Positions 185 to 47,952 of a DNA stretch of 64,000 nucleotides are shown here, one piece after another (position 1 is the stretch's first letter; the number at the start of each line of letters is the position of its first letter). The notes beneath the pieces are model-generated. The model was not told the DNA's origin, did not search any database, and worked only from the letters and a program-made list of their open reading frames with translations. The stretch comes from Escherichia coli (GTDB lineage: Bacteria > Pseudomonadota > Gammaproteobacteria > Enterobacterales > Enterobacteriaceae): NCBI RefSeq assembly GCF_003334785.1, contig NZ_QOWV01000003.1. One strand, given 5' to 3'. A program made the translations under genes and the position numbers.

Positions 185-508
185 TTACAGGCGGTGGCGA
201 TAATCGCTGGGAGTGCGATCAAACTGCCGACGGAAAACGCGGGAGAAGGTCTGCTGCGAGACATAACCCAGGTCCATTGCGATATCAAAAATCGGACGCT
301 CGGTGGTGCGCAACTCAACGGCGGCCAGTAACAGGCGGCGTTGGCGAATGTAATCGCCAAGCGTCTGATGCGTCACCGTGCGGAACATTCGTTGCAAGTA
401 CCACTTTGAATAGCCTGATTTTTTTGCGACTACATCAATGTTAAGCGGCTGGTCAATATGCTCGTCAATCCATGCGATAAGATCCTGAATAATTTTCTGA
501 TGGGACAT
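185..508 (-). CDS. soxS: SoxS, AraC/XylS-family superoxide-response activator (107 aa)
   Basis: ORF MSHQKIIQDLIAWIDEHIDQPLNIDVV... recognised as SoxS; divergent from soxR with SoxR operator in between. Confidence 0.97.
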   Translation of the reverse strand: MSHQKIIQDLIAWIDEHIDQPLNIDVVAKKSGYSKWYLQRMFRTVTHQTLGDYIRQRRLLLAAVELRTTERPIFDIAMDLGYVSQQTFSRVFRRQFDRTPSDYRHRL

Positions 509-593: not shown

Positions 594-1058
594 ATGGAAA
601 AGAAATTACCCCGCATTAAAGCGCTGCTAACCCCCGGCGAAGTGGCGAAACGCAGCGGTGTGGCGGTATCGGCGCTGCATTTCTATGAAAGTAAAGGGTT
701 GATTACCAGTATCCGTAACAGCGGCAATCAGCGGCGATATAAACGTGATGTGTTGCGATATGTTGCAATTATCAAAATTGCTCAGCGTATTGGCATTCCG
801 CTGGCGACCATTGGTGAAGCGTTTGGCGTGTTGCCCGAAGGGCATACGTTAAGTGCGAAAGAGTGGAAACAGCTTTCGTCCCAATGGCGAGAAGAGTTGG
901 ATCGGCGCATTCATACCTTAGTGGCGCTGCGTGACGAACTGGACGGATGTATTGGTTGTGGCTGCCTTTCGCGCAGTGATTGCCCGTTGCGTAACCCGGG
1001 CGACCGCTTAGGAGAAGAAGGTACCGGCGCACGCTTGCTGGAAGATGAACAAAACTAA
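594..1058 (+). CDS. soxR: SoxR, MerR-family redox-sensing [2Fe-2S] regulator (154 aa)
   Basis: N-terminal MerR HTH, C-terminal [12 protein letters not shown] cluster motif; sequence recognised. Confidence 0.97.
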
Positions 1059-1190
1059 AGCGCCACAAGGGCGCTTTAGTTTGTTTTCCGGTCTTTGTCT
1101 TTCTCTCTATCCCGCTGGTACACAGGAGGGTTTCCCCCGACGTCAACACACCTCATTCGAGCACGTGGTGGAGGTTCCGGTTGGTGTTGA
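1051..1190 (-). ncRNA. ryjA: Probable RyjA small RNA, antisense to the soxR 3' end (boundaries approximate)
   Basis: From memory a ~140-nt sRNA lies here in K-12. In sequence there is a minus-strand TACAAT -10 hexamer (1198-1203) about 7 nt upstream of ~1190, and the terminator hairpin at 1057-1077. Confidence 0.45.
1057..1077. terminator. Bidirectional intrinsic terminator (soxR on +, ryjA on -)
   Basis: AAAGCGCC-ACAAG-GGCGCTTT hairpin overlapping the soxR stop; T-rich run follows on both strands (AGTTTGTTTT on +, AGTTTTGTTC on -). Confidence 0.7.
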
Positions 1191-1331
1191 TGCTTTAATT
1201 GTATGTCACCGACGTTTCTTCGCCAGTGTAAAAGTATACTTTTTAACCGCAATATTTTTGTCATCTCAGACGATTTTTTATCGCAATCCTGAACGGTATA
1301 CGGCTCGATAACGCTGCAATCTTGCGCACCG

Positions 1332-1347
1332 ACGATAACGTTTGCGC
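1332..1347. promoter_or_regulatory. Candidate PurR operator upstream of ghxP
   Basis: ACGATAACGTTTGCGC matches the PurR palindrome ACGCAAACGTTTGCGT at 13/16 positions by my count; related AACGTTTGC cores recur at ~1437, 1474-1489 and ~1533. Confidence 0.4.
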
Positions 1348-1603
1348 ATCAATTGCCTGGTTTTTCATCGTCAAGACAATAAAAGAGAAAAAAGCAGCAA
1401 ACTTCGGTTGAAAAAGCCGCTATGATCGCCGGATAATCGTTTGCTTTTTTTACCACCCGTTTTGTATGCGCGGAGCTAAACGTTTGCTTTTTTGCGACGC
1501 AGCAAATTGTCGCAAACCTGGAGCAGGAAGATAACGTTTCGCTGGCAGGGGATTGTCCGCCACGCATCTTGACGAAAATTAAACTCTCAGGGGATGTTTT
1601 CTT

Positions 1604-2953
1604 ATGTCTACGCCATCAGCGCGTACCGGCGGTTCACTCGACGCCTGGTTTAAAATTTCACAACGTGGAAGCACTGTCCGTCAGGAAGTGGTTGCCGGGT
1701 TAACAACGTTTCTGGCGATGGTCTACTCGGTCATCGTCGTTCCAGGTATGTTGGGTAAAGCAGGCTTCCCGCCTGCGGCAGTTTTCGTTGCAACCTGTCT
1801 GGTTGCCGGACTCGGTTCTATCGTGATGGGTCTGTGGGCTAATCTGCCGTTGGCGATTGGTTGCGCCATCTCCCTGACAGCGTTTACCGCATTCAGCCTG
1901 GTGCTGGGGCAACATATTAGCGTACCTGTCGCGCTGGGTGCCGTGTTCCTGATGGGTGTGCTGTTTACGGTAATTTCTGCCACGGGTATCCGTAGCTGGA
2001 TTTTGCGCAACTTGCCTCACGGTGTGGCGCACGGCACGGGGATTGGTATCGGTCTGTTCCTGCTGCTCATTGCCGCTAACGGTGTCGGTCTGGTGATTAA
2101 AAACCCGCTTGATGGTCTGCCCGTTGCGCTGGGTGATTTCGCGACCTTCCCGGTGATTATGTCACTGGTAGGTCTGGCGGTGATCATCGGCCTGGAAAAA
2201 CTGAAAGTCCCTGGTGGCATTCTGCTGACCATTATCGGTATCTCAATTGTCGGTTTGATCTTCGATCCTAACGTCCATTTCTCCGGCGTTTTCGCCATGC
2301 CTTCATTGAGCGATGAAAACGGCAATTCACTGATTGGCAGCCTGGACATTATGGGCGCGCTGAATCCTGTAGTCCTGCCAAGCGTTCTGGCGCTGGTGAT
2401 GACGGCAGTATTTGATGCCACCGGAACTATCCGTGCCGTCGCCGGCCAGGCGAACCTGCTGGATAAAGATGGGCAGATCATCGACGGTGGGAAAGCACTG
2501 ACCACTGACTCCATGAGCAGCGTTTTCTCTGGCCTGGTGGGTGCGGCTCCGGCAGCGGTATACATCGAGTCTGCGGCGGGTACGGCGGCGGGCGGTAAAA
2601 CCGGTTTGACGGCTATCACCGTTGGCGTGCTGTTCCTCCTGATTCTGTTCCTCTCTCCGCTCTCTTACCTCGTTCCGGGGTATGCAACGGCTCCGGCGCT
2701 GATGTACGTTGGCCTGCTGATGCTGAGCAACGTGGCGAAAATCGACTTTGCTGATTTTGTTGATGCGATGGCGGGTCTGGTTACGGCTGTATTCATCGTG
2801 CTGACCTGTAACATCGTAACAGGCATCATGATCGGCTTCGCGACTCTGGTGATTGGTCGTCTGGTTTCCGGCGAATGGCGCAAGTTGAACATCGGTACGG
2901 TCGTTATCGCCGTGGCGCTGGTGACCTTCTATGCGGGTGGCTGGGCTATCTAA
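1604..2953 (+). CDS. ghxP: Guanine/hypoxanthine permease GhxP (YjcD), NCS2/AzgA-like, 449 aa
   Basis: Polytopic membrane [44 protein letters not shown]... recognised; SD-like GGGGA upstream. Confidence 0.93.
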
Positions 2954-47163: not shown

Positions 47164-47952
47164 TCAGGCAGCTTTCGCGTTCTCTTCGACGCGGTTAATG
47201 CTGCGGTAGAGATGGTCAAAACGTTCGTTATCAAACTGTTGGCTGCTGCCGTCGTAGAAGACGTGCCCCTGGCGCAGGGCGACGATGCGTTCGCAGTAGC
47301 GCAGGGCGTAATCCACCTGATGCAGCGTGACGACCACGGTGATGCCGTCGTTCTGGTTGATGTCGCGCAGGGTGTCCATCACGATGCGCGCTGATTCTGG
47401 GTCCAGCGAGGCGATGGGTTCATCGGCCAGAATCACTTTCGCCTGCTGCATCAGCGCACGGGCAATCGCCACACGTTGCTGCTGGCCGCCGGAGAGGGTG
47501 GAAACGCGCTGATGGGCAAAATGCACCATGCCAACGCGGGTCAGCGCCTGTAACGCGCGCTGTTTCTGCTCGCCGGTGAACCAGCTAAAACAGGTGCGCC
47601 AGAACGGCGTGCTGCCGAGCGCGCCAATCAGCACGTTCTCCAGTACGCTCAGGCGGTTCACCAGGTTGAATTGTTGGAATATGTAGCCGGTATGGGCGCG
47701 GCTTTTGCGGATATCGCGGGCCAGGCGGCCTTCGCGCTGGACTGTGCGGCCCAGCAGCTCGATATGGCTACCGACAGATTTATCGCCGGTAATCAAACCG
47801 CTTAAGTGACGTAAAAGGGTGGATTTTCCGGAACCCGACGGCCCAAGCAGAGCCACCATTTCACCGTGATGAATGTTCAGATCAACCGCATGCAGCGCCT
47901 GATGCTGATTGAAGGTTTTGGCGAGCTTCTCGACACGGATAATCGTTTGCAT
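47164..47952 (-). CDS. phnC: PhnC phosphonate ABC transporter ATPase, 262 aa
   Basis: Walker [18 protein letters not shown] signature. Confidence 0.95.

Follow-up and report, generated by a model that had tools for sequence, protein, structure and literature searches.

Control of ghxP (yjcD), the guanine/hypoxanthine permease gene, by the repressor PurR is textbook-level knowledge. Purine riboswitches lie in the leaders of purine transporter genes such as xpt-pbuX and pbuG in Firmicutes, and we know of no purine riboswitches in enterobacteria. The closest described relatives of the ghxP sites are the operators of the purR region and of purB, which use the same repressor and the same 16-bp palindrome. 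These operators are located inside the transcribed region and block elongation, and in this they would resemble O3, one of the ghxP sites described below. Only purR and purA have been annotated as targets with two PurR sites (PMC3505978, PMC3159470). A further parallel is the gal repressosome, in which a LacI/GalR-family dimer without a tetramerisation domain acts at two operators that flank the promoter and are separated by a fixed, helically phased distance of about 100–114 bp (PMC5110547). Reconstructions in RegPrecise, in PMC4576408 and in the iModulon motif search of PMC6892915 already place yjcD/ghxP in the PurR regulon and report the most upstream site, box 1. PMC4576408 also reports box 4 as an extra PurR site, which the present analysis contradicts. 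The accessible regulon reconstructions do not distinguish DNA roles from RNA roles, do not position the sites with respect to the promoter and do not mention a structured leader, and no description of a ghxP leader was found in the literature searched.

The DNA analyzed here (the window) is a stretch of 64,000 nucleotides covering the E. coli soxS-soxR-sraL-ghxP region. An initial annotation had pointed out four related sequence cores upstream of ghxP, together with an inverted repeat. All of the quoted sequences were found, with coordinates that are right to within 1–2 bp. The first, ACGATAACGTTTGCGC at 1332–1347, is identical to the PurR palindrome ACGCAAACGTTTGCGT at 13 of 16 positions. The cores AATCGTTTGCTTTTTTT and AAACGTTTGCTTTTTTG are located at 1435–1451 and 1478–1494, and the fourth is present as ATAACGTTTCGC at 1531–1542, 2 bp away from its earlier placement at ~1529–1540. 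The direct repeats also exist, with starts 43 bp apart and not 44 bp; neither this spacing nor the T-run after box 2, which is replaced by GCCTTAATTTG or GCCTTTCTGTTT in many genera, is conserved across genera. The purine control proposed for the gene agrees with the repression of ghxP by PurR with adenine that has already been reported (PMC3809563, PMC6892915, PMC8376909).

For scoring, a PurR PWM was built from 27 published sites (12.2 to 24.9 bits), with the ghxP site left out, and both strands of the 64-kb window were scanned. The best match in the window is box 3 (O3) at 19.0 bits and the second best is box 1 (O1) at 18.4 bits, so the claim that only box 1 looks like a full PurR operator does not stand. 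Box 2 (O2) reaches 11.1 bits in E. coli, less than any of the training sites; in the many species that carry AGATAAT it reaches 14.1 bits. The 16-mer of box 4 (1528–1543) scores 7.9–8.3 bits in E. coli. A palindrome near ACGCAAACGTTTGCGT with a central CpG and a score in the known range is found at O1 and O3, with O2 borderline. The clustering of the boxes is far above chance, as three of the seven distinct sites of at least 11 bits in the 64 kb are within ~160 bp of each other here. The extra cores, which had been described as phased half-sites, are not uniform: box 2 is a weaker operator, box 3 a full operator and box 4 part of an RNA helix. Collectively, the four cores are probably two different things that share one sequence, namely three PurR operators and an RNA partner of O3. 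The DNA features are as follows.

1322–1328, plus strand: invariant heptamer TTGCGCA (100% conserved in 81 sequences)
1332–1347, no strand assigned: O1 (box 1), distal PurR operator ACGATAACGTTTGCGC (PWM, published ChIP-chip motif, conservation)
1408–1437, plus strand: predicted sigma-70 promoter of ghxP, with –35 TTGAAA at 1408–1413, N18 and –10 GATAAT at 1432–1437 (hexamer conservation)
1431–1446, no strand assigned: O2 (box 2), weaker PurR-type operator GGATAATCGTTTGCTT (PWM, conservation)
1474–1489, no strand assigned: O3 (box 3), full PurR-type operator AGCTAAACGTTTGCTT (PWM, conservation)

The comparative set consisted of 80 Enterobacteriaceae species taken from ~530 genome matches, and the upstream alignment contained 81 sequences. 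Conservation among orthologs was found for O1, O2 and O3 and not for box 4. PurR occupancy is on record as well: the ChIP-chip peak "ryjA/yjcD" of Cho et al. 2011, seen only with adenine, spans 957–1587 of the window and contains all of the boxes, individual boxes being beyond its resolution, and the motif listed for it is O1, in line with the reading of box 1 as a PurR operator (PMC3159470). A lack of PurR occupancy and a lack of conservation outside E. coli had been named as what would speak against PurR control through these cores; the data run the other way on both counts. Box 1 is already published; O2, O3, the fixed distance of O1 from the promoter and the leader go beyond the known PurR control.

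TTGAAA-N18-GATAAT is the sole promoter-like match in 1000–1700, with 10 of 12 positions matching. Both hexamers are 100% conserved and the spacer is 18 nt long in 81 of 81 sequences, though 15 of its 18 columns vary. This promoter would start the ghxP transcript at about 1443–1445; a look for measured starts found ghxP missing from the Adams 2021 supplements and nothing in ROSE. Because the start is predicted, the placement of O2 and O3 relative to +1 is set by the conserved hexamers alone. O2 overlaps the conserved –10, with its left half doubling as the hexamer, and O3 is downstream of the –10. In the 80 Enterobacteriaceae species O2 is almost invariant. Its right half, CGTTTGC, which extends beyond the –10, is kept in all 80 species and lost only in Mangrovibacter; O2 is also present in Salmonella and Erwinia. 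The distance between the centers of O2 and O3 is 43–46, 77–78, 88–91 or ~205 bp, depending on the genus.

O1 is likewise almost invariant in the 80 species, and its center is ~104 bp upstream of the predicted start. All but one of the 81 sequences have exactly 60 nt between O1 and the –35, although 45 of these 60 columns are variable, and the sole exception carries a 10-bp deletion, i.e., it is one helical turn shorter. Correspondingly, the center-to-center distance between O1 and O2 is 99 bp in 80 of the 81 sequences and 89 bp in the exception; the 99-bp distance is also found in Salmonella and ESL0689, and O1 is absent from Erwinia. The invariant TTGCGCA is 3 nt upstream of O1 and recurs 20 bp further on, as the right end of O1 itself. 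The sequence 5′ of the upstream copy does not align at all among the 81 sequences. The alignments were also inspected for another promoter near O1, and neither strand shows a conserved –10 in ~1322–1380.

O3 would occupy about +31 to +46 from the predicted start. Of its 14 columns at 1474–1487, position 3 can be C or T and the others show little or no variation in 77 species. O3 is kept in Salmonella and also in Erwinia, where the RNA model described below no longer matches; this retention without a matching leader argues for constraint on O3 as DNA. In two lineages, L069 and ESL0689, O3 and the leader are lost together, and O3 is therefore dispensable.

Downstream of the promoter, the transcript contains a structured leader that involves both O3 and box 4. 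Its elements, all on the plus strand, are as follows.

1458–1574, plus strand: structured leader of the ghxP mRNA, in which P0, the arm P1-P1b-P2 and P3 meet in a three-way junction (covariation)
1461–1472, plus strand: 5′ strand of P0, pairing with 1561–1572 (covariation)
1491–1516, plus strand: P2 hairpin, stem 1491–1498/1509–1516, loop 1499–1508 (compensatory changes)
1533–1543, plus strand: box 4, 3′ strand of P1, pairing with 1474–1484, the left half and core of O3 (covariation)
1548–1560, plus strand: P3 hairpin, GGGGA-UUG-UCCGC in E. coli and GUGGA-UUG-UCCAC in most species (pairing)
1561–1572, plus strand: 3′ strand of P0 (covariation)
1590–1606, plus strand: invariant Shine–Dalgarno region CAGGGGA and ghxP start codon ATG (1604) (conservation)

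Pairing was counted in MAFFT alignments built without regard to structure and was compared with slid controls and 500 shuffles; compensatory switches were counted on a tree from the ghxP coding sequence. In the leader, 91–92% of the cells are paired, compared to 30–47% in the slid controls (91.6% and 31–43% in one of the two analyses), and none of the 500 shuffles reached the observed pairing values. Changes on both sides were seen in 15 pairs and 170 cells (controls, 4–13 pairs and 16–50 cells), with at least 45 independent Watson–Crick compensatory switches compared to 9–22 in controls. Independent MFE folds in 18 genera gave the same architecture in nearly all. As G·U pairs number 226 and C·A mismatches 48, it is the plus strand that is the RNA, and an antisense RNA was rejected on this count. 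Compensatory changes on the sense strand and conserved unpaired nucleotides, both of which mark a structured leader, were found; the junction and internal-loop nucleotides GGCAG (1544–1548), GCGG (1470–1473) and CA.GGA are at least 90% conserved. The E. coli leader on its own is thermodynamically unremarkable (z = –1.39) and has mismatches in P0, P1b and P3.

The individual helices behave in the same manner. In P0, 8 of 11 pairs change on both sides, and one pair is AU in 52, CG in 8, UA in 7 and GC in 2 cases. All 79 species compared have a hairpin of 5 bp or more at the P2 site, built from more than 10 different stem sequences; P2 is 97% paired, and five of its six pairs change on both sides. 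The inverted repeat TTGCGAC/GTCGCAA pointed out earlier is present at 1492–1498/1509–1515, extends to 8 bp when 1491 and 1516 are counted and, on the evidence of these compensatory changes, is the RNA hairpin P2. The loop of P2 contains CCC in most species and is CAGCAAAU in E. coli. P3 is 92% paired, with one G/G mismatch in E. coli. The O3 transcript provides the 5′ strands of P1 and P1b, and it hardly changes; it is the partner, box 4, that adapts to it. For example, the pair 1476/1541 is UA in 35, CG in 32 and UG in 9 species and unpaired in none, with at least three independent switches. Judged by these alignments, box 4 is not a conserved PurR operator, and its changes follow those of box 3 as expected of two strands of an RNA helix; it resembles O3 because the palindromic O3 transcript needs an O3-like partner.

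A covariance model of the leader found one copy in the window, at 101 bits, and gave 95 bits for Salmonella, although no Salmonella sequence had gone into the model. Even with filters off, Erwinia leaders reached at most ~12 bits (E ~0.2 or worse) and ESL0689 gave no score. Within the range of genomes compared, the leader is confined to Enterobacteriaceae. An Rfam cmscan of 900–1800 at E ≤1 gave no match for the leader and returned only sraL, at 1051–1191 on the minus strand.

We infer separate occupancy of O2 and O3, a role for O1 and a function for the leader, which could be combined as follows. With hypoxanthine or guanine in ample supply, O1, O2 and O3 would be occupied by corepressor-bound PurR. 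O2, which merges with the –10 and the predicted start, would block RNA polymerase binding or open-complex formation, and O3, in the early transcribed region, would work as a roadblock, the mode of action of PurR at purB and purR. O1 would contribute in a manner that depends on helical phase. The transcript of about 1458–1574 would then fold into the three-way junction, with box 4 and the O3 transcript forming P1. Our best guess is that the leader tunes ghxP translation or mRNA stability post-transcriptionally. The MFE folds gave no clear case of Shine–Dalgarno sequestration by the leader, and in 65 of 76 species, not including E. coli, the Shine–Dalgarno AGGGG finds its complement in the P2 loop, CCCC(U). 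A more far-reaching proposal, to which we give a small chance, is that the leader would be a new Enterobacteriaceae-specific cis-regulatory RNA, which senses a purine-related metabolite, or a protein, and controls permease translation, with the O3 palindrome read twice (as PurR DNA and as an RNA fold) and O1 adding a phase-locked layer.

Compared to the purR and purB operators, the ghxP region has three conserved sites and not one or two. Furthermore, one of its sites is fused with the –10 and one is ~104 bp upstream at a fixed distance, and its downstream operator takes part in an RNA helix as well. Compared to the purine riboswitches of Firmicutes, the ghxP leader likewise belongs to a gene for purine base uptake and forms a three-way junction in the 5′ UTR with conserved junction nucleotides. 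However, it has no sequence or model match in Rfam, is larger (~115 nt) with another layout of arms, lacks a recognizable expression platform and is found in Enterobacteriaceae only.

That all four boxes are PurR operators, with PurR coating the DNA from –104 to about +100, appears improbable. A regulon-inference study added box 4 (AAGATAACGTTTCGCT, position –76) to the predicted PurR sites (PMC4576408), and in E. coli the box combines its 7.9–8.3 bits with an intact AACGTTT core. Over 77 species, however, its median PWM score is –1.9 bits, none of the 77 reaches 12.2 bits and only three exceed 8; the core is GACGTTT or CGCGTTT in most genera, and box 4 tracks O3 by Watson–Crick and G·U rules, which PurR binding to DNA would not predict. 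The opposite reading, in which only O1 and perhaps O2 are PurR sites and box 3 is kept purely as leader RNA with an incidental likeness to an operator, is unlikely. It can draw on the position of box 3 in P1 and P1b of a well-supported structure, on the joint loss of O3 and leader in L069 and ESL0689, and on the published motif searches, which gave only box 1. A 19-bit match, however, occurs at about 1 in 100,000 window positions, and this one adjoins a PurR-bound, PurR-repressed promoter. Box 3 also varies far less than the rest of the helices, in which pairs change freely together, and both halves of the palindrome are kept even though they belong to two different helices. Moreover, O3 in Erwinia scores 17–19.6 bits at the same distance from O2, next to a leader that is not detectably homologous. 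An even smaller chance, and a very small one, goes to the view that the T-runs are a terminator, an attenuator or, as known from pyrBI, codBA and upp, a start site with UTP-sensitive reiterative transcription, the repeat then being a duplicated signal. It would make use of GCTTTTTTT, which follows the predicted start in E. coli, and of the O3 palindrome followed by TTTTTT, which superficially resembles a weak hairpin and U-run. The terminator scan of the leader, however, found no intrinsic terminator on the plus strand; the U-run after O3 (1488–1493) precedes the P2 hairpin, whereas an intrinsic terminator has it directly behind a G+C-rich hairpin, the box 2 T-run is the unconserved one, and the supplements of Adams et al. 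list no 3′ ends in the ghxP 5′ UTR.

The role of O1 raises a separate question. O1 alone does not explain repression, as it is 60 bp upstream of the –35; at about –104 it is at neither classic repression position (promoter overlap or downstream roadblock), and we know of no PurR action from there. O1 and O2 do form a pair of operators at a fixed, helically phased distance, as looping requires, and PurR dimers might bridge them into a gal-repressosome-like repression loop around the –35/UP region, although we consider this rather unlikely. Such a loop would account for the fixed 99 bp (nine turns at 11 bp per turn). In its favor, the 89-bp exception is one turn shorter and an A/T-rich tract at 1384–1397 is close to the O1–O2 midpoint; moreover, GalR, a close relative without a tetramerisation domain, loops with HU (PMC5110547). 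At gal, however, GalR acts at OE and OI with HU, whereas PurR dimers are not known to associate, no HU site was found at ghxP, and the second ghxP operator overlaps the –10 and is not downstream. Erwinia, moreover, has no O1. PurR binding to the two purR operators was reportedly found to be non-cooperative by Rolfes and Zalkin in 1990, which counts against a loop. Furthermore, the LacI/PurR hybrid LLhP, which carries the PurR regulatory domain, did not loop, as it showed no spacing-dependent repression, the signature of looping (PMC3505978). As PurR is not known to act at about –104 and LLhP lacks spacing dependence, the fixed position of O1 lacks an established mechanism. A phase-dependent effect of the PurR bend on the wrapping of upstream DNA around RNA polymerase would fit equally well. 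The exact distance of O1 across about 80 species, with one helical turn as the sole change seen, points to a phase-dependent action, a mode not known for PurR.

The three-operator reading with an RNA partner for O3 has several implications. The conserved O2 and O3 supply a plausible repression mechanism that the published O1 alone cannot, and to our knowledge ghxP would be the PurR target with the most operators. It seems that even E. coli, the best-studied bacterium, has a purine transporter mRNA with a structured leader that covariation supports. If purine uptake is also controlled at the RNA level, this would offer a useful new handle irrespective of the ligand or partner involved. The overlap of the O3 operator with an RNA helix would be a clear example of dual coding, and the ghxP boxes illustrate how repeated motifs can mislead a reading from sequence only.

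Several other candidates in the region were rejected. A leader peptide could begin at the AUG at 1466, which opens a 22-codon ORF in E. coli; this codon is AAG, CUG or UUG elsewhere and co-varies within P0. A minus-strand ORF at 1349–1567 (72 aa) has its frame broken in other species by indels, some in the leader and some in the stretch that separates box 2 from box 3. A pseudoknot in which the P2 loop would pair with the G-rich internal loop was dismissed, as complementarity is 9.36 within species and thus no higher than the 9.53 between species. A paralogous leader was sought at ghxQ in the xanQ-guaD-ghxQ operon, and the covariance model found none in this 30-kb purine locus, where PurR sites occur singly. 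GGA motifs (ACARGGA; CAGGGGAUGU) made the leader a candidate CsrA target, which was set aside for lack of a CLIP peak: in Potts et al. 2017, ghxP has no CLIP-seq peak, and its expression moves with that of other PurR-regulon transporters.

The repeats upstream of ghxP (yjcD), the guanine/hypoxanthine permease gene, are real, appear from comparative evidence to be functional, and make up two overlaid signals. As DNA, three of them are predicted PurR operators, of which one (box 1) has been published. The inverted repeat and the fourth core are parts of a conserved, predicted structured leader of the ghxP mRNA, in which the third operator (O3, box 3) would be used again as a helix strand. That PurR regulates ghxP is already known; no description was found in the literature of this leader fold, of O3 serving as both DNA and RNA signal, or of the phase-locked position of the first operator (O1, box 1). 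The window is from E. coli, and its gene order was named from open reading frames (ORFs) and the K-12 map:

185-508, minus strand, soxS (ORF and K-12 map)
594-1058, plus strand, soxR (ORF and K-12 map)
1051-1191, minus strand, sraL/ryjA small RNA (Rfam RF01408, 153 bits)
1604-2953, plus strand, ghxP/yjcD (ORF and K-12 map)
after ghxP, yjcE (ORF and K-12 map)

The intergenic segment 1059-1603 (545 bp) was found in 5,421 of 5,426 complete E. coli genomes. sraL/ryjA and the 3′ end of soxR share a terminator hairpin, which is therefore bidirectional, and the sequence from sraL up to 1322 is not conserved outside Escherichia. In Salmonella, Erwinia, and Mangrovibacter, a glutathione S-transferase–family gene that E. 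coli lacks lies between soxR and ghxP (loci L081-L085, about 440-1230); in Erwinia, its 3′ end sits where O1 would be.

All sequences quoted in the initial annotation were found in the window, with coordinates right to within 1-2 bp. A PurR weight matrix was derived from Table 1 of Cho et al. 2011 (PMC3159470), using its 27 sites other than the one at ghxP, and the whole 64-kb window was scanned on both strands. The training sites score 12.2-24.9 bits.

1332-1347, box 1 (O1), 18.4 bits, second best match in the window
1431-1446, box 2 (O2), 11.1 bits, 7th best
1474-1489, box 3 (O3), 19.0 bits, best match in the window
1528-1543, box 4, 8.3 bits, 23rd best

Because of these scores relative to the training range, the clustering of boxes at ghxP is not due to chance. 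The earlier view that only box 1 resembles a full PurR operator was wrong, as box 3 scores higher. In the ChIP-chip study of Cho et al., the region 'ryjA/yjcD' (window 957-1587) was bound by PurR only with adenine, and the motif listed for it is exactly box 1 (PMC3159470), which was recovered again by an iModulon motif search (PMC6892915). Repression of yjcD/ghxP by PurR with adenine has been reported or cited (PMC3809563, PMC6892915, PMC8376909). O2 and O3 are conserved, and as far as we found they have no experimental characterization in the literature, where two PurR sites are annotated only at purR and purA (PMC3505978). A 2015 regulon-inference paper noted that yjcD was already in RegPrecise and placed a further predicted PurR site at box 4 (PMC4576408). 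As a PurR site, box 4 has a median score of -1.9 bits over 77 species, and in none does it score as high as the weakest known site. Compared to the three clustered at ghxP, the strong PurR sites of the ygf purine-catabolism locus (15.9-20.2 bits) are single:

L087 3747 (NC_000913.3 3015746), upstream of ygfK
L087 18640 (NC_000913.3 3030639), inside ygfT
L087 19321 (NC_000913.3 3031320), upstream of uacT

The sequence GGATAATCGTTTGCAT (47937-47952), which falls in the opening codons of phnC on the minus strand, scores 11.6 bits and agrees with box 2 in 15 of 16 positions, a match that is probably due to chance.

Conservation was followed in 80 orthologous ghxP loci, one genome per species, covering Citrobacter, Enterobacter, Klebsiella, Raoultella, Kosakonia, Cedecea, Buttiauxella, Siccibacter, and others. 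Boxes 1, 2, and 3 are nearly without change in all 80 species; the T-run noted after box 2 is not conserved in other species. Upstream, homology is absent 5′ of 1322 and begins with an invariant TTGCGCA (1322-1328), followed by box 1. This heptamer, 3 nt upstream of O1, is a copy of the right end of O1 (1342-1348), 20 bp apart; neither a binding factor nor a promoter element could be matched to it. An A/T-rich tract (1384-1397) lies near the O1-O2 midpoint. The sole promoter-like match in the region is the predicted ghxP promoter:

1408-1413, plus strand, -35 TTGAAA
1432-1437, plus strand, -10 GATAAT, after an 18-nt spacer

Both hexamers are 100% conserved, and the spacer is 18 nt in 81/81 sequences with 15 of its 18 columns variable. 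Box 2 overlaps both the -10 and the start, which is inferred at about 1443-1445, and its right half, CGTTTGC, is invariant too, though outside the -10. Box 3 lies at about +31 to +46, and the segment between boxes 2 and 3 varies from 26 to 189 nt across species. In Klebsiella, Raoultella, Scandinavium, and Siccibacter (L062, L068, L080, L020, L033, L050), insertions of 30-160 nt separate the promoter from the leader's closing helix, and the Klebsiella type of insertion is a G+C-rich hairpin (CTCCCCC...GGGGGAG); none of these insertions alters the leader module.

Box 1 and the -35 are separated by exactly 60 nt (1348-1407) in 80 of 81 sequences, with 45 of the 60 columns variable, and the sole exception (L065) has a 10-bp deletion, or one helical turn. 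A PurR–PurR loop between O1 and O2 would explain this fixed position, as the 99-bp spacing corresponds to 9 turns at 11 bp per turn. Against such a loop, a hybrid repressor with the PurR regulatory domain gave no spacing-dependent repression (PMC3505978), and O1 is wholly dispensed with in Erwinia. A phase-dependent bend is an alternative account.

Outlying loci differ in which boxes they hold. Salmonella has boxes 1-3 with identical spacing. In Mangrovibacter, box 2 no longer has its right half, and Erwinia (Erwiniaceae) has boxes 2 and 3 without box 1. ESL0689, a small-genome bee-gut enterobacterium, keeps boxes 1 and 2 99 bp apart and lacks box 3.

Independent minimum free energy (MFE) folds from 18 genera gave the same leader architecture in nearly all:

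1461-1472 with 1561-1572, plus strand, P0, long closing helix
1474-1484 (box 3 left half and core) with 1533-1543 (box 4), plus strand, P1
1485-1488 with 1520-1523, plus strand, P1b
1491-1498 with 1509-1516, plus strand, P2, the inverted repeat
1548-1552 with 1556-1560, plus strand, P3

Pairs were counted in two MAFFT alignments, neither fitted to any structure. In alignment A2, 91.6% of cells are paired, compared to 31-43% in slid controls; 15 pairs (controls, 4-13) and 170 cells (16-50) have changes on both sides, and 0 of 500 shuffles reached the observed pairing values. P0 was recovered by RNAalifold alone, with pair types AU, CG, UA, and GC, and P2 is present in 79/79 species as more than 10 different stems. 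Box 4 and the left half of box 3 vary together, with AGCTAAACGT pairing to ACGTTTAGCT and AGTTAAACGT to ACGTTTAACT. Pair 1476/1541 is UA in 35, CG in 32, UG in 9, and unpaired in 0. Mapped onto a neighbor-joining tree from the ghxP coding sequence, the helices must have switched between Watson–Crick pairs independently at least 45 times (slid controls, 9-22), including at least 3 times at the box 3/box 4 pair. G·U pairs outnumber C·A mismatches (226 vs 48); therefore, the folded molecule is the plus strand, the ghxP mRNA.

When the 64-kb window was searched with a covariance model of the leader, a single copy emerged (101 bits). The model also matches Salmonella, which was not in the training set, at 95 bits; two species with indels have partial copies, and Mangrovibacter scores weakly (21.8 bits). 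Neither Erwinia nor ESL0689 gave a significant match, even with filters off. The model has no match in the xanQ-guaD-ghxQ purine locus. Rfam 15 has no match to the leader at E up to 1. Box 3 is invariant except at one position, and box 4 changes to match it. This asymmetry, taken with the fact that Erwinia retains box 3 but gives no match to the RNA model, argues that box 3 is constrained as DNA, by PurR binding, on top of pairing. O3 and the RNA structure were lost together in both natural losses, namely one Pseudescherichia vulneris strain (L069, about 2395-2470), in which a deletion takes out O3 through P3, and ESL0689 (L086, 1300-1500), in which an unrelated leader without O3 follows the retained O1 and O2.

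In thermodynamic terms, the E. coli leader by itself does not stand out (z = -1.39; an Enterobacter leader, z = -3.49). The distal arm is remodeled in E. coli and E. whittamii, with a weak P1b. Scans of the leader found no terminator, MFE folds showed no Shine–Dalgarno sequestration, comparison across genera gave no leader peptide, and no covariation was seen for a pseudoknot joining the P2 loop to the internal loop. There is no CsrA CLIP peak on ghxP, although two CsrA-like GGA motifs are present. The P2 loop (1499-1508) contains CCC in most species of the hairpin list, and in 65 of 76 species its CCCC(U) is complementary, with at least 4 G–C pairs, to the invariant AGGGG of the Shine–Dalgarno sequence (1590-1596). 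In E. coli alone, CCCC is replaced by CAGC, giving a loop, CAGCAAAU, without this complementarity; the sister species E. whittamii keeps CCCC. As a regulatory clue, this complementarity may serve as a lead only. The unpaired junction nucleotides GGCAG, GCGG, and CA.GGA are conserved, which would fit a ligand- or protein-binding RNA. Complementary A- and U-runs flank the Shine–Dalgarno sequence (1575-1600; AAAAC...GUUUU, or AAAAAUC...GAUUUUU in Cedecea and Buttiauxella) and would place it in a small hairpin whose pairing register differs between clades.
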